Virus record (IMG/VR): IMGVR_UViG_3300019132_000012
Location: 1 to 64,000 of that record
Strand: one strand, 5' to 3'
From: a virus
DNA: 64,000 nucleotides
In this document: one piece after another, positions 58 through 53,000 of the stretch
Layout of the letters: each line of letters opens with the position of its first letter
How positions within the stretch are numbered: the stretch's first letter is position 1
Translations under genes and position numbers: made by a program
Notes under the pieces: generated by a model
The model's input: only the letters and a program-made list of their open reading frames with translations
Database searches by the model: none
Told to the model about the DNA's origin: nothing

Positions 58-1248
58 CTATCCTGTTGATTTTCGTTGATTTTCCGCTTCGTCCTCAATT
101 GTGGTGTGGCTTGTGGTGTGACCTGGTGCATCGGCGTGAGCACCGCTGCCGCTTCCGGCGGCCACGCCCGCCTCGATCCCGGCCAGCACATCCTCATCCA
201 GGACATGCGCGTACCGCATGGTGGTGGCGATATCCTCGTGACGTAATACCGTCTGCACAACCTTCAGATTCTTGCTGCCCCGCAGGATGCGGGTGGCCGC
301 CGTATGACGCAGATCGTGGAAGCGGAAATCGAGGATTTTTGCAGTCTCGCGTTTGCGTCGAAACGTGGTCTTCAAACCCTCGTAGGTAATCGGATAGCGC
401 TGTCCGGCGATGCGGCGCTCGCCGATCTTCGGGATCGTGCGGGTGCGCTCGGCGATATAGGTGAACACGAATTCGGCGTGATGCCCGCGCAGCGGCCAGA
501 GAATGTCCCGCATGCTGGGCGCGAGCGGAATCGGCGCCCGCTTGTTGCCCTTGCCGGTGATCCAGACACGGCGATTGCCGAAATCGACGTCGCTCCAGCG
601 CAGCGAGCAGGCCTCGTCGAGGCGCAGACCGGCCACGATGCAGAAGCGGATGATCGGATGGTAGTCCGCCCGCAGGGCCGTAAAGAGGCGCTCTTCCTCG
701 TCGCCGTGCAGCTCGCGGGTTCGCTCCTTCGGCTCGTCGCGCAGCAGCTCCTTCCAGACGATCTTGCCGTGCGGCTGGTCGTGGACCTCGGCCGCATAGC
801 GCAGGATCCGCCTGAGCGGCTCGGTCACCGTCCGGTTGAGCGTCGCGTCCGAGACCCGCGTCCCTGCCTTCTTGCCGGGATCCTGGGCCCGCCTGGCGAT
901 CAGCTTGGCCACGAAGCCGGTGGTAATCTCGCGCAGCGGCGTGTCGTTGCCGACCTCCTTCTGCAGCCAGGTGAAGATCCCCTTGGTGTTGGCGTCGAAC
1001 TCGCCGTCGAGCCGCTCCTTGAAATACGCGGTCGCGGCCTGACCGAAGGTCCAGGGGGCACCGTTGGTCTCTCGCAGCCGCTTGATCTCCTCGCGGGCTT
1101 TCTCCTTCTCGCGGGCTTCTACCCGTTTGGCCGCCCGTTCCGACGTTTCACCTGTATTGCCTGAAAATCGACGACCCCCGAGTTCAAAGCTGTAGGAGTA
1201 CGTTTCCGCTTTTTTGCCGTTCCTTCCGGTTTTCCGGTAGACTGCCAT
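58..1248 (-). CDS. int: Tyrosine-type phage integrase
   Basis: 396 aa ORF. C-terminus has HDLRHTAATRILR ... LRHEDIATTMRYAHV (tyrosine-recombinase H-x-x-R and catalytic Tyr boxes). It abuts the tRNA fragment. Confidence 0.9.
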   Translation of the reverse strand: MAVYRKTGRNGKKAETYSYSFELGGRRFSGNTGETSERAAKRVEAREKEKAREEIKRLRETNGAPWTFGQAATAYFKERLDGEFDANTKGIFTWLQKEVGNDTPLREITTGFVAKLIARRAQDPGKKAGTRVSDATLNRTVTEPLRRILRYAAEVHDQPHGKIVWKELLRDEPKERTRELHGDEEERLFTALRADYHPIIRFCIVAGLRLDEACSLRWSDVDFGNRRVWITGKGNKRAPIPLAPSMRDILWPLRGHHAEFVFTYIAERTRTIPKIGERRIAGQRYPITYEGLKTTFRRKRETAKILDFRFHDLRHTAATRILRGSKNLKVVQTVLRHEDIATTMRYAHVLDEDVLAGIEAGVAAGSGSGAHADAPGHTTSHTTIEDEAENQRKSTG

Positions 1249-2332: not shown

Positions 2333-3733
2333 TCACACGGCGACCGGCGCCGAGATGCGTTCGTGGGACTCGTAGCCGACGAGCACGACGTCGTCGGCGG
2401 TGATGGTGTCGATGGTGAAGGGGCGCTTGGCGAAGCCGATGCGCGGCAGACGGAGCGGCTCGCGGTTGAGCTGCTGTTTCACCTGCACCATGTGGTTGTT
2501 GTAGATGTGCCCGTCGCCGATGGTGTGGACGAACTCACCGGCCTGCAGACCTGTCAGCCGAGCGATGATCTCGGTGAGCAGGGCATACGAGGCGATGTTG
2601 AACGGCACGCCCAGGAAGGCATCGGCCGAGCGCTGATAGAGCTGGCACGACAGCTTGCCGTTGGCGACGTAGAACTGGAACATCATGTGGCAGGGCGGCA
2701 GCGCCATCTTGTCGACTTCGGCCGGGTTCCAGGCCGAGACGACAAGGCGGCGGCTGTCGGGATTGCGCTTGATCTCCTCGATCACCCACTTGAGCTGATC
2801 ATAGGTCGATCCATCAACACCGTGCCACGAGCGCCATTGAGCCCCATACACTCGACCCAGATCACCATCCTCAATCAACTCCAGACGAGGCAGATAATCT
2901 GGAACGTCCAGTTCAGTGAACTCCCATCCCGCAAAAGACTTGTTGTTGCCCTTGAGGGTGGACGGAACGCCTTCCTTCACGAAACGACTCAAGGTCGATG
3001 TCGGCATGCCGATGCGACGGGATGCTTCGGCTTGGCTCAGATAGAGGCGCTTGATGCCGTCACCATCCACAACGCTGACGGGCTTGGCCGACTTCGTGTA
3101 GAGATTGTTCTCGTCTGTGCGGAGCCAGACCGATGTCTCGGGACCATACTGACGGGAGCCGTAATAGTCCTTGTCCAGCTCGAACTCGTCCCAGTTCTTC
3201 TGCTTGTACCACCAGTGAGGGATCTTCTTCACGCCCTCGATAAAGGCGCGGGGATCATGCCATGACGGATGAACCGACACACCATTTGCTCCATAGAGAT
3301 CGAAACGGTGATAGTTTTCATCGTAGCAGCGCCGCATCATACGGACCCAGGTATCTGCGAGCTTACGATCTTCGCCTTCCGGTAGGTTCAGACCGGCATA
3401 GCTGAAATCACCCGTATAAGGGGCGTATTCGGCCTCCTTTGGCGTAACCCACACCATGTTGCGGTCGAAGTTGTACGGACGACGCCACTCGTCCCAGATC
3501 GTGACGCCGTTGTCGTTCAGGTACTTGATGTTGGTGTCGCCGCGCAGGAACCAGATCAGCTCGTGCAGGATCGATTTGAAATGCACCTTCTTCGTGGTGA
3601 CCAGCGGAAATCCCTTCGAGAGGTCAAAGCGCATCTGGTAGCCGAAGATCGATCTCGTGCCGGTGCCGGTGCGATCAGACTTGTCGACGCCGTTGACGAG
3701 GATGTGCTGTAGAAAATCGTGATACTGCTTCAT
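2333..3733 (-). CDS. thyA: Thymidylate synthase ThyA with an in-frame insertion of about 206 aa
   Basis: MKQYHDFLQHIL..DRTGTGT..IWDEW then, after the insert, GDLGRVYGAQWRSW..SAWNPAEVDKMALPPCH..YQRSADAFLGVPFNIASYALL..GDGHIYNNH. These are all canonical ThyA blocks. Start taken at MKQYHD; the 98 aa upstream extension in the track looks like shadow sequence. Confidence 0.9.
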   Translation of the reverse strand: MKQYHDFLQHILVNGVDKSDRTGTGTRSIFGYQMRFDLSKGFPLVTTKKVHFKSILHELIWFLRGDTNIKYLNDNGVTIWDEWRRPYNFDRNMVWVTPKEAEYAPYTGDFSYAGLNLPEGEDRKLADTWVRMMRRCYDENYHRFDLYGANGVSVHPSWHDPRAFIEGVKKIPHWWYKQKNWDEFELDKDYYGSRQYGPETSVWLRTDENNLYTKSAKPVSVVDGDGIKRLYLSQAEASRRIGMPTSTLSRFVKEGVPSTLKGNNKSFAGWEFTELDVPDYLPRLELIEDGDLGRVYGAQWRSWHGVDGSTYDQLKWVIEEIKRNPDSRRLVVSAWNPAEVDKMALPPCHMMFQFYVANGKLSCQLYQRSADAFLGVPFNIASYALLTEIIARLTGLQAGEFVHTIGDGHIYNNHMVQVKQQLNREPLRLPRIGFAKRPFTIDTITADDVVLVGYESHERISAPVAV

Positions 3734-4119
3734 GCGGTTGGATCCGTCAGGGTTCCGAGGTTGAGGAACACGTCGGCAGGGCCGTCGTATTCGATGTGCG
3801 TGATGAAGGAACGGCGCACGAAGGGCATGAAGGCCCGGTAGGTCTTGGCGCCGCCTGCGATCCAGATGTCCCGCTTGGGGTCCATCTCGGTGAGGGTCTT
3901 GATCAGCCCTTCGGGATCGATGTCCCGGCGCCAGCCGACGAGGAGTCGGCCTTCGAGGGAAGGGACATGGGATAGGGTGTTGCCACCCATGATCACGAAG
4001 CCGTTCATGGTCATTTTCTTGAACCACTTCAGGTCTTCGGCATCATGCCAGGGCAGCTTGCCCATCAGCCCGAGCTGGCCCGACTTCCCGACCGCTGCGA
4101 TCAGGTTGACGCTGCCCAT
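3730..4119 (-). CDS. folA: Dihydrofolate reductase (short form, 129 aa)
   Basis: VNLIAAVGKSGQLGLMGKLPWHDAEDLKWFKKMTMNGFVIMGGNT matches the DHFR IGxxGxLPW / MGrkT pattern. Overlaps the thyA start (ATGA-type coupling). Confidence 0.8.
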   Translation of the reverse strand: MGSVNLIAAVGKSGQLGLMGKLPWHDAEDLKWFKKMTMNGFVIMGGNTLSHVPSLEGRLLVGWRRDIDPEGLIKTLTEMDPKRDIWIAGGAKTYRAFMPFVRRSFITHIEYDGPADVFLNLGTLTDPTA

Positions 4120-35828: not shown

Positions 35829-37982
35829 TTAGGCTCCGATGATGATGGGCTCCTGGGCGTCCTCCACGGCCTGGGCCGCCTGCTCCCGTTCTTCGCAGGC
35901 GAGAAGCCGGAAGTATTCGTTCAGAGCCGTCTGACGCTTGTTCTTGGTGTCGTAGCCATAGCCGTAGTGATGATCGGCGATCACCCGGAACAGCGGGTAC
36001 TTCTTGATCATCGCTTGGTACTTGTCATTGATCGCCTGCGTCGGGCTCGGGAAGGTCGGCTCCTGGACGGTGTGACCGATCATCTTCAACGCCTCGATGG
36101 CGCGGTCGGTGTCGGTCCGCGTGTAGGTGCCGCGCTGCAGCCGCTCGATGATCGGCATGACCTCCTCCTTGAAGGCCTTCATCGGGGCAGGAGCCTGCGT
36201 CAGGTCGTATTCCCTGACGAACTGCCGGACGTGGGCATCGAGACTCGACTCGGTGCGGCCGTAGAACTCGTCGCGGGTGGAGAAGTCTACCTTCGCCTCG
36301 ATCAGCGGCTTGAGCTTGTCGGCAATGAACGTCCAGCCTCCGGTGAGAACATCCTTCTCCTGTTTGATCAGGATCTCGGTATCCTCCGGGAGCACCTTCA
36401 GTTCCGCCGCCAGCTTGAGGAAGCGCTCCATCGTGCCTTGCGACACGCGGATGCCCCGACCGATGAACCAGTTGGCATCGTACTTGCCATGGCCATATTC
36501 GGTGTCGCGGTAGACATAGAAGCCACCGCCAGCCAGATCGACATCCTCGGCCTCGATGTGCATGCCGTACTGAGTGGCCGTGATGGTCCGGCGCTTGCGC
36601 ACGGTCTTCGCCCGCTTCTCGGTCGGAGACTTCTTCTCCAGCTTGAAGTCGTCGAGTGTGATGTATCCGGCCGGATTGCCGATCTGGGTCAGGACGCTCG
36701 CCAGATCGTCGCGCTTGACGCGGATCCAGAGGAATCTCTCGTCGTCGAGTCCGGCCGCCGCGAGGCGTTCCTTCGAGCGGTACGGGTTATGCTCGATGGC
36801 GATCTTGAAGCCCTCCAGGGTACGGAAATCGACCTTGCCGCCCTCAAACTTCTCGACGCTCCTGCCGCCATGGCTGACCTTCATCATCTTGGCGTGCAGC
36901 AGCTCCGCGCCCGCCGCTCGCAGATGCAGGCCACGCCACTTGATCTGCGAATGCAGCCAGTCCTGGCGCCACTGACCGAGATTGCCGGTCTCGTCATAAA
37001 AGATCCTGCAGGCCGCGAAGTAACTGTCGGCCGCTTGGACCTTGGCGCGGATCTGTTCCAGGTTTGACGTCTCGTACTGCCGCACCAGACGCTCCAGCGT
37101 TGCCTTCGTGCGCTCGTCATAGGCCAGGGCCTCGCGGGAGAGCGTCACGGAGAGCGATCCGATGGGGGCCTCGAACAGCACCGCATCATCCTCGTTGAGC
37201 ATCTGCGAGCCCTGGATCTGACGCAGATCGAAGGGATACATCACCGGACCCAGTTGCACATGCGGCCCGTCGAACGGCACCGTGTGAGCGTGATAGCGCG
37301 TCCAGCCCTCGCCTTTCATGTACACTTTGGGCTCGCCCCATTCGATCTCCGGGAAGACCTTCGGGCGCGGATGGAACGACCAGTAGATCTCCTTTGCCCG
37401 ATGGTGGAAGGCGTAGATGTCGTTGCGCGACACTGAGAACGACACCTCGACGCCGGTCTCCTCGTCCGTATCCTCCTCGTGGATCATGCGGAGCTTCGGC
37501 TTACCGGCCTGATCGAGCGACATCGTCCAGATCCGTTTCTTGCCCTCGGACCAGGTCGTGATCGTGAACATGCCGGTGCCGCTCTCGCCGATCAGGTAGG
37601 CGAAGGGCGACATCTTGCCCAGGCCCCAGCCACCGGCCTCTTTGTCGGACAAGCGCTTGGTCGAGGCATAGAGACGAGAATAGACGTCCTCCATGACCTG
37701 CTTGGTCATGCTGTGGCCGTAGTCACGGATGCGGAAAGTCGGGTTGAGGTTGGTCGGCAGGAAGATACGGGGCACCTTGTCCTCGGGCACCTCGTCGCCG
37801 AAGCGGGCCACCGAGGCGTCCCAGGCATTGGTGGCGAGTTCCCGGATCGGGTAGCCGATCTTGTCCTTCGCCAGGCCTGACATCTGGGCAAAGAAGGCAA
37901 CGCCGTTGGCCTCGATGGTGACGTCGATTTCGTCCATCACGCCAGCGGTGATGTCGGTGTGTTCGCGCAGGGCGAGTTTCAT
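35829..37982 (-). CDS. GHKL (Bergerat-fold) ATPase, RIIA-like (717 aa)
   Basis: IRELATNAWDAS (N box), IRDYGHSMT (G1-like) and GGWGLGKMSPF (G2-like). The size and N-terminal ATPase resemble phage RIIA-type proteins. Confidence 0.6.
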   Translation of the reverse strand: MKLALREHTDITAGVMDEIDVTIEANGVAFFAQMSGLAKDKIGYPIRELATNAWDASVARFGDEVPEDKVPRIFLPTNLNPTFRIRDYGHSMTKQVMEDVYSRLYASTKRLSDKEAGGWGLGKMSPFAYLIGESGTGMFTITTWSEGKKRIWTMSLDQAGKPKLRMIHEEDTDEETGVEVSFSVSRNDIYAFHHRAKEIYWSFHPRPKVFPEIEWGEPKVYMKGEGWTRYHAHTVPFDGPHVQLGPVMYPFDLRQIQGSQMLNEDDAVLFEAPIGSLSVTLSREALAYDERTKATLERLVRQYETSNLEQIRAKVQAADSYFAACRIFYDETGNLGQWRQDWLHSQIKWRGLHLRAAGAELLHAKMMKVSHGGRSVEKFEGGKVDFRTLEGFKIAIEHNPYRSKERLAAAGLDDERFLWIRVKRDDLASVLTQIGNPAGYITLDDFKLEKKSPTEKRAKTVRKRRTITATQYGMHIEAEDVDLAGGGFYVYRDTEYGHGKYDANWFIGRGIRVSQGTMERFLKLAAELKVLPEDTEILIKQEKDVLTGGWTFIADKLKPLIEAKVDFSTRDEFYGRTESSLDAHVRQFVREYDLTQAPAPMKAFKEEVMPIIERLQRGTYTRTDTDRAIEALKMIGHTVQEPTFPSPTQAINDKYQAMIKKYPLFRVIADHHYGYGYDTKNKRQTALNEYFRLLACEEREQAAQAVEDAQEPIIIGA

Positions 37983-47702: not shown

Positions 47703-49313
47703 TTAGTCCCAACGGTCGATGTGGTACCAGGCGACGCCGGTATCCGTGGTGACGCGGATCTTGTTCGCCGTGGCCCGGTTGCCGTTGCCGACCATCACGC
47801 CGTTGGCCGTGCCCTCGTCCTTGCCCTCGATGGACTTGGATCGGTTGTAGGCCTCGACGACCGAGCGAACCGGGTGCAGCTCGCTCTTGAGGATCTCCGG
47901 GAACAGGCACAGCTGCGGATCGCGCCGGTCCTTGGCCCCTTCGAGGATCAGGATCGCGCCCGTCCCCTGGTGTTCGAGCGGCTTCTCGCCCCACAGGTTG
48001 GGCTTGAGCATGATGCCGGTCACGTTGACCCAGGTGCCGGACCGCAGGTTCCAGTCGGACGGGGCCGATCCGTTGCTGTAGAAGTACCAGGAGAACGGAT
48101 TGCGGTTCTCGTGGCTGTCCCACTGGATGATCGGCGGGGCGTCCGCATGAACCGCCGTCACGACGCCGCAGAAGGCCATCGACGAGGCCATGTACAGCTC
48201 GATCTTGCGGGCATTCGGCAGCACCGTCTTGGCAAACTTGGCCCAGGTGATGTTGACCTCACTGCCATCGGACAGGGCCGGAGACGGACTCTTGCCCTTC
48301 GGGGCCAGGTGACCGAACATGCCGCCCTCGGGCTGCTTCCGGCCGGTGACCTTGACCGCCGTGGGCGTCCAGATCGTCTGGACCTCCTCCAGGCGAGCGA
48401 ACCGGCGCTCGAAGGCCGGGGCGATGCCCATCTCCTCGACGAGCTTCTCAGCCTGCCGGATCGCACCCGACGTGGGGGCGGCCTGCGGGCGCTGATACTG
48501 CAGCGGGTTCATCTTGGACTTGAACCGGGCGGCGACCGCCGTGGTGTCCATGCCCGCAGCCAGATCTTCGAGCAGGGTGCCGACCATCGAGGAGCGCGGC
48601 GTCGCGAACCCGACCGGCGCCTTGGCCACGGCCAGCCACACCAGGTTGTTCGCCTGGGCGCCCCGCGCCTTGGCCCGCGCCAGGTGCAGATCGTGCAGGA
48701 ACTTGGCCGGACCGATCACCTTCTCGGAGCGGTAGAGGCTCTCGGACTGGAGCAGGGTGAGCGCCTGGCCCACGACCTCGACCGAGAAGTCGGACAGGCC
48801 GTGCGACAGGGTGCCGTAATCCTGTTTCTTCTGCGCCATCATCTGGCCTGCGGTCATCACGCCCTTGCGGTGCAGGATGGTCTGCGGCGGCCGGATCGCG
48901 AAGTGGGTGAAGCCACCGGCTTCGGGCGTGCCCCAGGTCAGGTCGGACGACAGGAACACGCCGGTCACGCGGCCTCGGGCCACGGCCTTGGCCATCGACG
49001 CGGCCCCGGCCTGATAGAGATCCGGGATGCTGTCGCCGCCCCACACCGCCGAGGACTGGTGGCCGTGCTCGTCGATGGAGACGAGGTTGCCGAAGCGGCG
49101 GATAAAGCTGCGGCAGGCATGGCAGTTGTGATACTGGATCTGATCGGCCGGGAAGCTGCCGAGGTAGTGGTCGTAGAGATCATCGCTCGTCTCGACCGTG
49201 AACAGGTACGGCGACTGGGCGATGGCGGCATCGAAATGTCGCTGAACCGAGGCGGCGAAGGCATCGAACACGGCATCGACGGGATGGGTGTGCGCGGCGG
49301 TGCTGGTCAGCAT
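47703..49313 (-). CDS. Hypothetical protein (536 aa)
   Basis: Long ORF with normal composition. The longer plus-strand ORF is shadow sequence. Confidence 0.7.
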   Translation of the reverse strand: MLTSTAAHTHPVDAVFDAFAASVQRHFDAAIAQSPYLFTVETSDDLYDHYLGSFPADQIQYHNCHACRSFIRRFGNLVSIDEHGHQSSAVWGGDSIPDLYQAGAASMAKAVARGRVTGVFLSSDLTWGTPEAGGFTHFAIRPPQTILHRKGVMTAGQMMAQKKQDYGTLSHGLSDFSVEVVGQALTLLQSESLYRSEKVIGPAKFLHDLHLARAKARGAQANNLVWLAVAKAPVGFATPRSSMVGTLLEDLAAGMDTTAVAARFKSKMNPLQYQRPQAAPTSGAIRQAEKLVEEMGIAPAFERRFARLEEVQTIWTPTAVKVTGRKQPEGGMFGHLAPKGKSPSPALSDGSEVNITWAKFAKTVLPNARKIELYMASSMAFCGVVTAVHADAPPIIQWDSHENRNPFSWYFYSNGSAPSDWNLRSGTWVNVTGIMLKPNLWGEKPLEHQGTGAILILEGAKDRRDPQLCLFPEILKSELHPVRSVVEAYNRSKSIEGKDEGTANGVMVGNGNRATANKIRVTTDTGVAWYHIDRWD

Positions 49314-49339
49314 AAAGGACTCCTTTGGTTATGCTGGCT

Positions 49340-49648
49340 TCAGGCAAAGACCGGCCGATGGGCGGCGCGGTCCTTCTTGTTCCTCCTGCGGGGGTGCAGG
49401 GTGTTGTCGGGAGGAGGCAGGGGCAGATCATCGAGATCCTCGATGGGCCCCAGGTTGATGAGCCAGTCCGCAGCCGACCGATATGCCTGACCGTGGCCGA
49501 TCTGGATTTTTGCGGTGAGTTGATCGCCGATTGCGACAGACTTCGCGGTAGCTTGTCCGGCCGCCTGGGCTTCCAACATAAGGTTTCGAATGAAACGTCT
49601 GCGTAGACGTTCGGCGAATTCAATCATTGGCAGATGACTGTTCATCAT
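49340..49648 (-). CDS. Hypothetical protein (102 aa)
   Basis: ORF; start may be the second ATG. Confidence 0.5.
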   Translation of the reverse strand: MMNSHLPMIEFAERLRRRFIRNLMLEAQAAGQATAKSVAIGDQLTAKIQIGHGQAYRSAADWLINLGPIEDLDDLPLPPPDNTLHPRRRNKKDRAAHRPVFA

Positions 49649-49735
49649 TTTACTCTCTCGATTTCTATCTGTTCTTATGGAGGTTCCGAAATCATGGTGA
49701 CATCCTTGTCAGACCTGCGAGGAACATTGGGAGGA

Positions 49736-49781
49736 TGAAAACCCTCCATGCCGCCCAACATGACTGCTGGGCGGTGAGGAA
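49736..49781 (-). terminator. Rho-independent terminator, copy 1 of a duplicated element
   Basis: Gene sense CCTCACCGCCCA-N10-TGGGCGGCATGGAGG then GUUUU; starts at the stop codon of 49785..50579. Confidence 0.6.
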
Positions 49782-49784
49782 AGC

Positions 49785-50579
49785 TCACAATGCTTGGAGA
49801 ACCGGCTTGGTCTCGGCGATGACCTGGACGATCTTGGCCTGATCCCAGGATTCGAGGAGGGCCTTGCCGTAGCTGAAGGCTTCCGACTTCGGATCCACGA
49901 CGTCCCAGCCCTTCTGGAACTGGTGCGAGATATTCCAGTTGCTGTCGCCATCATCGCGGTAGATGACGAGGTAGACCGGCGACTTCTCCGACTGCGGATG
50001 GACGGGGCGGTTCTGATACTGTTCGTGACCGGCCGCGATCAGGCCCTCGACATAGTCCTTGGCCTCTTTCAGACCCATGCCATAGGCTTCGCGGGCAGTC
50101 TTGATCGCCTCGATGAGCTGGCCGGTGTGGATCTGCACCCGGATCTTGTTGGCGTATTCCAGATGCTTCCGACTCGCCTCCGTGCGGGCCTCGGCGACGA
50201 GCGCGTCCCGGACCTCTTGCGGGATGAGCGGACGTTTGGCGAGATGATCCTCGACCGCATTCTTGGCGTCGATCAGGCTGGCGCCGGTCAGGGTGCGGTA
50301 GTGCTTGATCGTCTCGATCTTACGGTCGCCCGCAATCGCAGTCGCGATCAGGGCATCGACGGTCTCACGATTGCTCTGCCTGAACTCCTCGACGCCGATG
50401 TTCTTGCCGTGCCGGACATTGTGGTCATCGCGGTCGCGGATTGCGTCGACGGCGCGACCACGAACACCATCATCGATCATGTTTTCGATGGTGCTAATGA
50501 AGGAGCTGGCCTCGACAAGACTGGGATTGGCCAGCTTGGCATCAGATTCGACGGCGGCGGAAGAAGTCATCATACCCAT
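49785..50579 (-). CDS. Protein with two ribosomal L7/L12 C-terminal-domain-like modules (264 aa)
   Basis: KIETIKHYRTLTGASLIDAKNAVE and IEAIKTAREAYGMGLKEAKDYVE, compared with the bL12 CTD [24 protein letters not shown]. Start MGMMTSS after AAGGAG. Confidence 0.65.
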   Translation of the reverse strand: MGMMTSSAAVESDAKLANPSLVEASSFISTIENMIDDGVRGRAVDAIRDRDDHNVRHGKNIGVEEFRQSNRETVDALIATAIAGDRKIETIKHYRTLTGASLIDAKNAVEDHLAKRPLIPQEVRDALVAEARTEASRKHLEYANKIRVQIHTGQLIEAIKTAREAYGMGLKEAKDYVEGLIAAGHEQYQNRPVHPQSEKSPVYLVIYRDDGDSNWNISHQFQKGWDVVDPKSEAFSYGKALLESWDQAKIVQVIAETKPVLQAL

Positions 50580-50606
50580 AGCGCTCTCCTTTGCTGGGTG
50601 TTGACG

Positions 50607-50654
50607 AGGAAAAGCCCTCAATGCCGCCCACCAGTGACGATGGGCGGTGAGGAA
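50607..50654 (-). terminator. Rho-independent terminator, copy 2 of the duplicated element
   Basis: Gene sense CCTCACCGCCCA-N10-TGGGCGGCATTGAGG then GCUUUUCC; starts at the stop codon of the ProQ-like gene. Confidence 0.6.
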
Positions 50655-50657
50655 GGC

Positions 50658-51002
50658 TCAGGCGGCTTGCTTGAGAGGCTCGCGGCGCTTGCGCTTCTGC
50701 TCGCTCATGGCCCGTAACCGCTCTTTGGCGTGGTCGGCCTGTTCCGGCGTCACGATCCCGGCCGGATGGCCGTCGATGCCGTAGCGGTACTGACCGGCGA
50801 CGAGCGTCTTCAGGTAGAGCGGACCGCTGGTGTAGTTGTGCAGCGCGGACCGGATGCGCTTGCGGGAGATATCCGGCATCAGCCGGAACAGCTCCTTGTC
50901 GATGCCGATGGCGAGCGGGATCTTGAGCCTGCCCTTGCCCATGAAGAGATTCGGGAAGCGCTCGACCAGGAGGCGTCTGACGACTTCGCTGTCGTGTTCC
51001 AT
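50658..51002 (-). CDS. ProQ/FinO-domain RNA-binding protein (114 aa)
   Basis: LVERFPNLF...PLAIGIDKELF...SRKRIRSALHNYTSGPLYLKTLVAGQYRYGIDGHPAGIVTPEQADHAKERL follows the ProQ/FinO N-terminal domain pattern. Confidence 0.65.
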   Translation of the reverse strand: MEHDSEVVRRLLVERFPNLFMGKGRLKIPLAIGIDKELFRLMPDISRKRIRSALHNYTSGPLYLKTLVAGQYRYGIDGHPAGIVTPEQADHAKERLRAMSEQKRKRREPLKQAA

Positions 51003-51045
51003 TTGCATTTGCTCCTTTCAGCAGCAGCGGCGTTTGAATTCGTGC
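50999..51045 (-). promoter_or_regulatory. Motif cluster
   Basis: ccatttgcatttgc...gtttgaattcgtgc. Confidence 0.45.
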
Positions 51046-51413
51046 TCACGGCGACGCATGGCGAAGCCGATCATGACGATGGTATAGAGGCTCGCGGCCC
51101 CGGCCCCAACGCCGGACAGGATGGCGCCGAGGAAGACGTAGCACACAAGGTTGATGGCGGTGAGCAGGCCGCCGAGAACGATCCATTCCTCCAGGCCGGT
51201 GAGCTGCTGGATCCATCCCTTGCGCTCGGGCCAGTAGAGGAACAGCTCGATGGCCGCGATCCAGGGCCACAACAGGACGGCTGTGAGGATCGTCAGGACG
51301 TTGACGAGCCGGTCGTATCGCGGATTCCAGACGTATCCGTCCTGCTGAATGAACCAATACAGGCACAGGCCGCCGCAGCCGAGATAAAGCAGGAAGTAAC
51401 TCAGGATTTCCAT
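51018..51413 (-). CDS. Membrane protein (131 aa, about 4 TM)
   Basis: Internal start MEILSYFLLYLGCGGL. Confidence 0.55.
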   Translation of the reverse strand: MEILSYFLLYLGCGGLCLYWFIQQDGYVWNPRYDRLVNVLTILTAVLLWPWIAAIELFLYWPERKGWIQQLTGLEEWIVLGGLLTAINLVCYVFLGAILSGVGAGAASLYTIVMIGFAMRRREHEFKRRCC

Positions 51414-52674: not shown

Positions 52675-52856
52675 AGATTTGCGCGAAAGTTGTGGAACGA
52701 GGTCATACCGAAGCCGACGACCATGGCGATGAAGACAGCCGTGACGACGGCCAGGCACACAGGACCGAGCATGAAAACACTCCAACGATGCAGGGAAAAG
52801 GGAAGCGGTAAGCGCTTCGGGCTGCCCACCGGAGCCGATGGGCAGAGGCGAAGGGC

Positions 52857-53000
52857 TCAGTCCTCCTCGGCCGCGACCGCCACGAGCTGGGCGCGGGGGA
52901 GGTTGTGATAGAAGGCGACCTGGACCCTGGCCTTGTATGCCGACGAGGCAATCACCTCGTCGATCAGGGTTCCGAAGCGGGTGATCTTCCAGAGGCGCAC
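52857..53000 (-). CDS. Small protein (47 aa, GTG start)
   Basis: (V)RLWKITRFGTLIDEVIASSAYKARVQVAFYHNLPRAQLVAVAAEED; GGAGGA upstream. Confidence 0.35.
   Translation of the reverse strand: MRLWKITRFGTLIDEVIASSAYKARVQVAFYHNLPRAQLVAVAAEED

Follow-up and report, generated by a model that had tools for sequence, protein, structure and literature searches.

A phage protein family joining a ProQ/FinO domain to bL12-like helices, with one member apparently split by a stop-codon hairpin

Two adjacent minus-strand genes of IMG/VR virus record IMGVR_UViG_3300019132_000012 are, by sequence comparison, the halves of one protein family that is mostly encoded as a single chain. The DNA analyzed (positions 1 to 64,000 of the record, hereafter the window) is phage DNA. 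Gene B encodes a ProQ/FinO-domain protein, and gene A, immediately downstream, encodes a protein carrying two motifs that resemble helices α4-α5 of ribosomal stalk protein bL12's C-terminal domain (CTD). The two halves are separated in the window by a stop codon and a hairpin (element E1), which is a copy of the hairpin 3' of gene A (element E2). Both the fusion family and its split by a stop-codon hairpin are new here, and a ProQ-bL12-motif fusion was not mentioned in the literature searched, including a dedicated review of FinO/ProQ evolution. A preliminary description of this DNA, made from its letters, had proposed that the gene pair forms a self-contained module. Both open reading frames (ORFs) were found on the minus strand where it had placed them, and the proposal is strengthened beyond adjacency by the 12 relatives in which the two modules are fused.

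Fused and stand-alone members of the family

Among the members found, 12 are ProQ-bL12-motif fusions and five are stand-alone gene-A-like proteins (12/17 fused). The fused chain (305-333 amino acids [aa]) begins with a ProQ domain, which a variable linker connects to a helical region; one bL12 motif follows, and then a spacer and a β-β-α-β-β domain. Its helical region carries R-D-x-x-N-(V/I)-x-(Y/F/H)-G, the helix hairpin has one IEAIK..R...G.GLKEAKD.VE motif, the spacer (~20 residues) is disordered in AlphaFold models, and the C-terminal domain (~62 residues) ends in (L/I)V.V(I/L)G.(T/S)K.VF (...LV.V(I/L)G.TKPVF). Gene A matches the fused relatives in their C-terminal half, and its alignment with 13 relatives extends over the helical region, the motif and the C-terminal domain. 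Gene B shares 38% identity with the ProQ part of the fusion P0076 (E=7e-22), and only one free-standing ProQ, a chromosomal protein, is closer to it.

The initial homology search with gene A returned mainly bacterial proteins that share the bL12 motif alone (DUF6793 plus PF00542 repeats), together with two end-to-end matches: P0077 (262 aa, on a phage-like 77-kb contig) and P0076 (333 aa, with PF04352 and PF00542). A ProQ mini-profile run on six-frame translations picked out the same ORFs as gene-A homology in L001 and in two IMG/VR contigs, L006 and L007. With a profile of the whole family, 11 fused PF04352+PF00542 proteins of 305-333 aa scored 199-419 bits. Gene A (221 bits) and P0077 (216 bits) fell within this range, and the motif-only proteins all scored ≤168 bits. 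A profile of the C-terminal domain gave only 16 matches among 1.84 billion representative proteins, nearly all of them from the family. It recovered gene A at 75 bits (E=4.9e-16) and added the fused P0233 and the stand-alone P0228 and P0229; two scans of GTDB representative genomes with the same profile returned no locus. The contigs of the relatives are phage-like where their context was seen, with DUF6197, Phage_T4_Y00F and DUF6008 genes as neighbors. These three also flank the fused P0123, together with many small ORFs, in what is annotated as a Methylobacterium genome assembly.

The window is the only case found in which both halves occur as adjacent genes. A ProQ-domain profile scan yielded 80 metagenome loci, all with stand-alone ProQ and none (0/80) with a gene-A-like partner. 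In the same scan, a 536-residue open frame in L071 (2788-4395; also in L068) scored 203-205 bits against the family ProQ profile, about twice the score of single-domain proteins. This frame may contain more than one FinO/ProQ domain and would be another unusual architecture.

The split in the window

The ProQ domain of the window does not lie in the same polypeptide as the bL12-like motifs and is encoded by a separate ORF ended by a TGA (50660-50658). This is the single stop codon between genes B and A, which share one frame; 26 in-frame codons follow it before the gene A ATG, and read-through translation from gene B gives ...PLKQAA*AFLTAHRHWWAALRAFPRQHPAKESAMGMM... The end of this stretch still resembles the linker of the fusions, AKESAM being colinear with their linker-boundary motif (KEGTTPM, KEGTHTM and KEKDTPM). 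Stand-alone forms begin at the domain-boundary Met of the fusions (P0077 and P0198) or at Val (P0125), and the boundary start codon is retained in 7/7 fused genes with readable DNA. Shine-Dalgarno strength at this codon rises above background only in L007, and an internal translation start within the fused genes is a weak possibility. In the window, gene A has a Shine-Dalgarno sequence, AAAGGAGA, upstream of its ATG, with a predicted anti-Shine-Dalgarno pairing to 16S rRNA of -8.7 kcal/mol.

The stretch that breaks the frame is E1, and its position is that of the inter-domain linker of the fused relatives. The same hairpin lies 3' of the homologous stop codon in L006, L007 and L041, which suggests that E2 is the ancestral copy and E1 a derived, recent duplicate inserted in the linker. 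The window sequence comes from a biocrust metagenome and was present in a DNA metagenome run only. Over 49600-51200, an independent Logan assembly made from that metagenome has the identical sequence (k-mer depth, ~526), and the in-frame TGA is therefore not an assembly error. A selenocysteine insertion sequence (SECIS)-type pairing of UGA and hairpin was considered and rejected: the UGA of E2 stands at the conserved C terminus of all homologs, with nothing homologous beyond it.

Gene B, a ProQ/FinO-domain protein

Judged by its domain content, gene B is a minimal FinO-domain protein, and its C-terminal tail is basic (KRKRREPLKQAA); an alternative ATG at 51008 would extend it to 116 aa. The Pfam ProQ profile (PF04352) matched at 87 bits (cutoff, 27; E=1.1e-24), with residues 10-110 spanning profile positions 7-108 of 109, i.e., the full domain. 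Solved structures were matched by sequence as well, namely, Lpp1663 (6s10; 5e-12), the E. coli ProQ N-terminal domain (5nb9; 1e-11), NMB1681, RocC and FinO. The ProQ/FinO signature noticed earlier in this gene is thus borne out over the whole domain.

The segments NYTSGPLYL and YRYGIDG of gene B have their aligned counterparts in LYTSSWRYL and TRVDLDG of E. coli ProQ (5nb9) and also align to Lpp1663 (6s10), and the family alignment shows no variation at Y57, T58, Y63, L64, R73 and G78. According to the literature, the Tyr in YT..YL and the Arg in R.D(L)DG belong to the RNA 3'-end pocket of FinO/ProQ domains. Gene B scored below the NCBIfam cutoffs for ProQ proper (PRK04950, 64.8 bits versus 127, over profile positions 10-115 of 205) and for FinO proper (PRK13754, 35.5 bits versus 136). 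A search of phages with gene B gave only weak matches, to Sinorhizobium phage phiM9 and a Cronobacter phage.

Gene A, bL12 helices outside a bL12 fold

The Pfam Ribosomal_L12 CTD profile (PF00542) matched gene A at 52 bits (cutoff, 25.9; E=8.8e-14), so that, with PF04352 on gene B, both homologies proposed for the pair exceed Pfam cutoffs. The match is made of two partial stretches, each covering only about positions 13-37 of the 67 in the profile (helices α4-α5). Motif 2 is kept in every family member (invariant IEAIK..R......LKEAKD.V) and is identical at 16/27 residues to α4-α5 of Thermotoga bL12 (1dd3), including I, K, R, G and LKEAKD.VE. Motif 1 is an extra copy not seen in other family members and looks closer to the repeats of bacterial DUF6793 + bL12-motif proteins than to the motif of its own family. 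The full-length bL12 equivalog (TIGR00855) reached 45.4 bits against a cutoff of 84.4, and Pfam found no N-terminal bL12 dimerization/uL10-binding domain in gene A.

AlphaFold2 models of gene A consist of isolated helix hairpins with a disordered spacer between them and the β-domain. The predicted local distance difference test (pLDDT) score of residues 141-264 is 85. Foldseek searches of PDB and BFVD with the full gene A model and with residues 141-264 returned nothing significant, and bL12 was absent among the PDB matches (best E-values, 0.24 and 0.07). The possibility that motif 2 and the C-terminal domain together rebuild the bL12 CTD fold was rejected on the absence of a significant Foldseek match in PDB or BFVD. 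Since the helix hairpin and the β-domain are modeled as separate units and no bL12 structure was retrieved, gene A presents the bL12 α4-α5 surface but is not a bL12 CTD, nor is it a ribosomal protein. The preliminary description had seen in gene A two modules very close to the bL12 CTD. The peptides that it quoted are present and correspond to two α4-α5 helix hairpins, but the full CTD fold was not recovered (25/67 profile positions, no Foldseek match), and the term "bL12-CTD mimic" overstates the likeness.

A tblastn search with gene A against 50,697 phage records gave no match. The same bL12 motif is carried by >3000 non-ribosomal bacterial proteins. These proteins (P0002, P0003, P0068, P0133 and >3000 others) contain two to four repeats of the α4-α5 motif (DUF6793 + PF00542) and are of unknown function. 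They come from Chloroflexota, Myxococcota, Planctomycetota and other groups, several have an N-terminal transmembrane helix, and they are routinely misnamed "ribosomal protein L7/L12".

Stop-codon hairpins

E1 and E2 each start at a TGA and fold at -29.7 and -32.2 kcal/mol, respectively (z-scores, -3.9 and -4.5). The elements are ~58 nucleotides (nt) long and identical in 50/59 columns of a local alignment (85%), more than the ~75-80% estimated by eye in the preliminary description, which had correctly seen paralogous 3' elements beginning at the stop codons. The alignment score of 67 lies 22 standard deviations above that of shuffled sequences (15.8 ± 2.3; maximum, 27). The pattern CCTCACCGCCCA-N10-TGGGCGGCAT (22 fixed bases) has two exact matches in the window, at 49748-49779 and 50621-50652 (minus strand), against an expectation of 0.00.

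A covariance model built from five copies of the hairpin scored E1 at 63.5 bits, E2 at 58.6 bits and a diverged third copy, E3, at 35.1 bits (E ~3e-7), and with filters off it found nothing else in the 64 kb. The UGA of E3 closes a 47-codon ORF (52857-53000) whose coding status is uncertain. A small terminator-like hairpin follows at 52818-52802. In relatives, the model found gene-end copies after an 81-aa gene in L043 and an 80-aa gene in L036, in L038 and L042, and as a second copy in L041. All copies share the two-tier fold (-26 to -35 kcal/mol), and 8/11 have an open frame closed by a TGA that occupies one and the same place in the lower stem. The upper stem shows compensatory changes at pair 4 (G-C/A-U/U-A), pair 5 (C-G/U-A) and pair 6 (C-G/U-A), counted outward from the loop. 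The count was made by script from anchored arms; MAFFT and covariance-model alignments were one column out of register for some 3' arms. Such changes are the signature of selection on RNA structure, and the hairpin is an element of gene ends across the lineage. When IMG/VR was scanned with a sequence pattern of the hairpin, the only true matches were two already-known contigs, the other seven matches being by chance, and Rfam had no family in 49300-51300.

The two ~80-aa proteins whose genes carry the hairpin in L043 (4001-4880) and L036 (2673-2968) are homologous (end ...ARELARNNGLSYEGSN..D.LD). The gene lies downstream of the gene-A-like gene in L043 and upstream of the fusion in L036, an arrangement that shows local gene shuffling around the hairpin.

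E1 and E2 have the GC-rich stem-loop of a terminator and lack a U-rich tract, with only UUUU after the stem. A terminator scan requiring at least five T's in eight bases flagged neither, and found canonical terminators elsewhere in the region. The copies in relatives have no U-tract and are followed by GCA... By these features, neither E1 nor E2 would count as a canonical intrinsic terminator. The shared terminator element of the preliminary description is thus real as a shared two-tier hairpin, part of a wider gene-end family that includes E3. Two details did not hold: E2 has GGAGG rather than UGAGG, and the U-tract is not a proper one.

In relatives, the hairpin runs straight into a palindrome, CTTGCA-N4-TGCAAG. 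A close variant, TTGC[AT]TGAAT[GT]CAA, occurs 13 times in the window, always intergenic and on the coding strand. The copies lie immediately upstream of genes, often with GCAAATG following at the start codon, and the motif probably serves this phage as its own promoter or operator. Because the hairpin abuts this promoter-like palindrome, it usually marks the end of a transcription unit. E1 and E2 both lie between the palindromes at 54504-54491 and 46528-46515, where they may act as weak terminators, attenuators or 3' stabilizers. The features of the region are collected in Table 1.

Table 1. Coordinates of the split gene pair, its protein segments, the stop-codon hairpins and the palindromes in the window
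Feature	Position	Strand	Description
Gene B	50658..51002	-	Minimal ProQ/FinO-domain protein, 114 aa; N-terminal half of fused relatives
Gene A	49785..50579	-	264 aa: helical N-terminal region, two bL12 α4-α5 motifs, disordered linker, family-specific C-terminal domain
bL12-like motif 1	50250..50327	-	Residues 85-110, DRKIETIKHYRTLTGASLIDAKNAVE; model helices 87-96 and 100-115
bL12-like motif 2	50046..50123	-	Residues 153-178, GQLIEAIKTAREAYGMGLKEAKDYVE; model helices 155-166 and 170-182
C-terminal β-β-α-β-β domain	49788..49979	-	Residues 201-264; pLDDT ~90; family-specific
Spacer	50580..50602	-	Contains AAAGGAGA; in gene B frame ...QHPAKESAM, cf. fusion linker motif KEGxxxM
E1	50603..50660	-	Gene B TGA and two-tier hairpin (GAGCCUUC / CCGCCCA - loop - UGGGCGG / GAGGGCUU), then UUUUCC
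E2	49731..49787	-	Gene A TGA and same two-tier hairpin, then UUUUCAUCC
E3	52805..52862	-	Diverged third copy, UGAGCCCUUCG..CUGCCCA..UGGGCAG..GAAGCGCUU; folds at -30.2 kcal/mol
Palindrome copies	54504-54491, 46528-46515, 42929-42916, 38012-37999, 34437-34424, 31249-31236, 29157-29144, 26193-26180, 20420-20407, 19751-19738, 13440-13427, 7105-7092, 5128-5115	-	

Proposed role of the two halves

FinO/ProQ domains bind the base of a terminator-type hairpin together with a 3' tail of 3-9 nt and protect the RNAs so bound (PMC9977716). The bL12 CTD holds the interaction sites for translational GTPases (Kothe 2004, on helices 4 and 5, and Helgstrand 2007, cited in PMC3299993), and α4-α5 is the part reported to contact EF-Tu, EF-G, IF2 and RF3. 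Taken together, the findings are probably best explained by a split ProQ-bL12-motif family, in which an RNA chaperone carries an effector half that contacts translational GTPases or ribosomes; our confidence in this explanation is moderate. A copy of the gene's 3' end (TGA plus a ~55-nt two-tier hairpin) would have been placed in the inter-domain linker, ending the ProQ half, and a strong ribosome-binding site and ATG after the inserted hairpin would start the second half, which would also have acquired the extra bL12-like motif. The gene-end hairpins most likely form or protect transcript 3' ends, as weak terminators or stabilizers. The ProQ domain may grip the hairpin-plus-tail 3' ends of phage or host RNAs, and that it also binds the E1 and E2 hairpins is a reasonable conjecture. 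The bL12 motif/C-terminal half would provide the effector contact, most likely with translational GTPases or the ribosome, and both halves would couple bound RNAs to control of translation or RNA stability in infection. Recurrent fusion argues that the ProQ and bL12-motif modules work on the same target. The split probably supplies the ProQ half in excess of the effector half, via attenuation at E1, and the separate halves may still act jointly.

A more specific form of this explanation, which we consider unlikely, is a device that couples RNA 3' ends to translation. The ProQ domain would hold a hairpin while the bL12 helix hairpin recruits or sequesters EF-Tu, EF-G or IF2 or docks at the GTPase-associated center. 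Bound phage mRNAs would then be favored or host translation throttled, and the hairpin as ligand would set an autoregulatory ratio of the two halves.

Several observations weigh against a split RNA chaperone with a translational effector half. The bL12 similarity extends to two helices only, and the motif is common in non-ribosomal bacterial repeat proteins, so that GTPase binding is not assured. No ProQ gene lies within 8-20 kb of the stand-alone genes in L002 and L043, so that the gene-A half can function, or is at any rate retained, with no ProQ beside it. The gene neighborhood of the window pair is also unlike that of the relatives, and their DUF6197, Phage_T4_Y00F and DUF6008 synteny is not seen around it. 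E1 and E2, with four U's, fail a simple terminator scan, and the copies in relatives have no U-tract at all. The hairpin also follows unrelated genes and occurs in L043, where no ProQ is nearby, and so is not specific to this gene. Finally, an ancestral two-gene state retains some probability as an alternative to fission, since the direction of change is argued from parsimony and from the recent look of the E1/E2 duplication.

Alternative explanations

The accessory half could be unrelated to translation factors, its bL12-like hairpin being a generic protein-protein or RNA-contact module. We regard this as rather unlikely, although it is the alternative to which we give most weight. The presence of only 25/67 positions of the bL12 CTD profile, the lack of a structural match to bL12 and the occurrence of the motif in >3000 non-ribosomal proteins, many with N-terminal transmembrane helices, would all suit such a module. 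The accessory domains of FinO/ProQ proteins are diverse and usually confer RNA chaperone activity (PMC9977716). In this reading, the hairpin and C-terminal domain together would play the part of the linker and Tudor-like domain of enterobacterial ProQ, as a second RNA-binding/chaperone surface or for oligomerization. Nevertheless, the segment kept is the factor-contact site of bL12 according to Kothe 2004 and Helgstrand 2007 (as cited in PMC3299993), and no family member departs from its conserved I, K, R, G and LKEAKD.VE. Furthermore, one bL12-domain protein from a phage was obtained together with 70S ribosomes (PMC6375957). An effector half contacting translational GTPases or ribosomes is still preferred.

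The remaining alternatives concern the split itself and its hairpin. Partial readthrough of the TGA at 50660-50658, modulated by the hairpin 3' of the UGA, would yield both a short ProQ protein and a full-length fusion. Only one stop codon interrupts the frame that genes B and A share, ...AKESAM... is colinear with the linker of the fusions, and most members of the family are fused. However, a shared frame is expected by chance in one case in three, gene A is equipped with a strong Shine-Dalgarno sequence and an ATG of its own, and an identical TGA-plus-hairpin at E2 marks a true protein end conserved in homologs. The 18 codons across the hairpin would give a peptide without a homolog (AFLTAHRHWWAALRAFPR), and Rfam has no recoding element here; readthrough is accordingly rated as very improbable. 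It is marginally less probable still that the hairpins are selfish or mobile palindromic repeats, like repetitive extragenic palindromic (REP) sequences or miniature inverted-repeat transposable elements (MITEs), which bring their own stop codon and landed in the linker by chance, with no role for the two proteins. Copies do follow several unrelated genes in relatives, three lie inside one 3.2-kb stretch of the window, and the 85% identity of E1 and E2, which includes the loop, points to recent copying rather than structural constraint alone. Against mobility, the copy number is very low (three in 64 kb with filters off), and in the IMG/VR sequence-pattern scan true copies were found only after this gene. 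In addition, the TGA stands at the same element position, at the end of a sizeable open frame, in 8/11 copies, all of them in sense orientation, and the stems evolve by compensatory change, which implies selection on RNA structure. A fission by a duplicated gene end remains the preferred account of the split.

Genomic context of the window

The window has a G+C content of 61%, and nearly all of its genes are on the minus strand. Among the PHROG matches are an integrase, a thymidylate synthase carrying an HNH insert, the ribonucleotide reductase large subunit, a RecE-like exonuclease and a primase-helicase, as well as an rIIA-like protein and a peptidase. Megablast of 40-60 kb of the window against phage and plasmid collections gave no match and hence no near relative, PADLOC found no defense-system match, and Pfam found no domain in 10 window ORFs near the gene pair.

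The tyrosine-type integrase (58-1248, minus strand) and the rIIA-like gene (35829-37982, minus strand) occur together on one phage contig of at least 109 kb, which suggests a large temperate phage. A 564-aa ORF (2333-4027, minus strand) combines thymidylate synthase (PHROG 160) and, at residues ~219-380, a segment of HNH endonuclease; by its appearance, an endonuclease or intein-like element has been inserted into this gene of nucleotide metabolism. Two genes downstream of gene A, a 536-aa protein without a Pfam domain (47703-49313, minus strand) matches PHROG 1735 (E=1e-116), a widely conserved phage protein of unknown function.

Relation to known systems and significance

FinO/ProQ proteins acquire diverse accessory domains and need accessory parts for regulation, and several associate with ribosomes (PMC9977716). 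Gene B resembles the minimal members of this group (N. meningitidis NMB1681/ProQ, L. pneumophila Lpp1663 and plasmid/phage FopA) in having a single ~110-aa domain and a short basic tail, and it lies on a mobile element, as do many α-proteobacterial homologs (PMC9977716). Unlike theirs, its type of domain is fused in 12 relatives to a bL12-motif/C-terminal-domain module. The fused relatives have the layout of enterobacterial ProQ: the FinO domain is N-terminal, a flexible linker comes after it, and a small folded domain forms the C terminus. In enterobacterial ProQ, which associates with ribosomes, the C-terminal domain is needed for function (PMC9977716). That domain is Tudor-like, whereas the accessory part of the family is made up of a helical region, the α4-α5 hairpin of bL12 and a β-β-α-β-β domain for which no relative was detected beyond the family; in the window these are encoded by a separate gene.

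Phages are already known to encode proteins in which a bL12 domain is embedded, and fractions of 70S ribosomes contained one of them (Mizuno et al. 2019, PMC6375957). They likewise match Pfam Ribosomal_L12, often embed the domain in a larger polypeptide and have been proposed as a translation-factor interface (PMC6375957). The protein described here differs in having the two-helix core only, duplicated in gene A and paired with a ProQ/FinO domain that belongs either to the same chain or to the gene next to it. With ribosomal bL12 itself, gene A has α4-α5 in common and lacks the N-terminal L10-binding dimerization domain, the hinge and β1/β2/α6/β3. The window hairpins are, like Rho-independent terminators and 3' stabilizer hairpins, GC-rich, located at a gene end and followed by U's. 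They differ in the two-tiered stem with an internal loop, in the stop codon inside the lower stem and in the conservation of the sequence itself across genes and phages.

Among bacterial RNA chaperones, the FinO/ProQ proteins form a major class; accessory domains decide their mode of action, and why they associate with ribosomes time and again is unexplained (PMC9977716). The naturally occurring fusion of a FinO/ProQ domain with the GTPase-contacting helices of bL12, recurring in a phage lineage, offers a concrete, testable hypothesis, and the phage bL12-domain proteins (PMC6375957) gain a defined partner. The split in the window is a natural experiment, with the modules as separate proteins and each half open to study alone, and it shows a portable "gene end" breaking a gene in two. 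If the hairpins do prove to be ProQ ligands, the pair would be a compact, self-contained model of phage RNA-protein coevolution.

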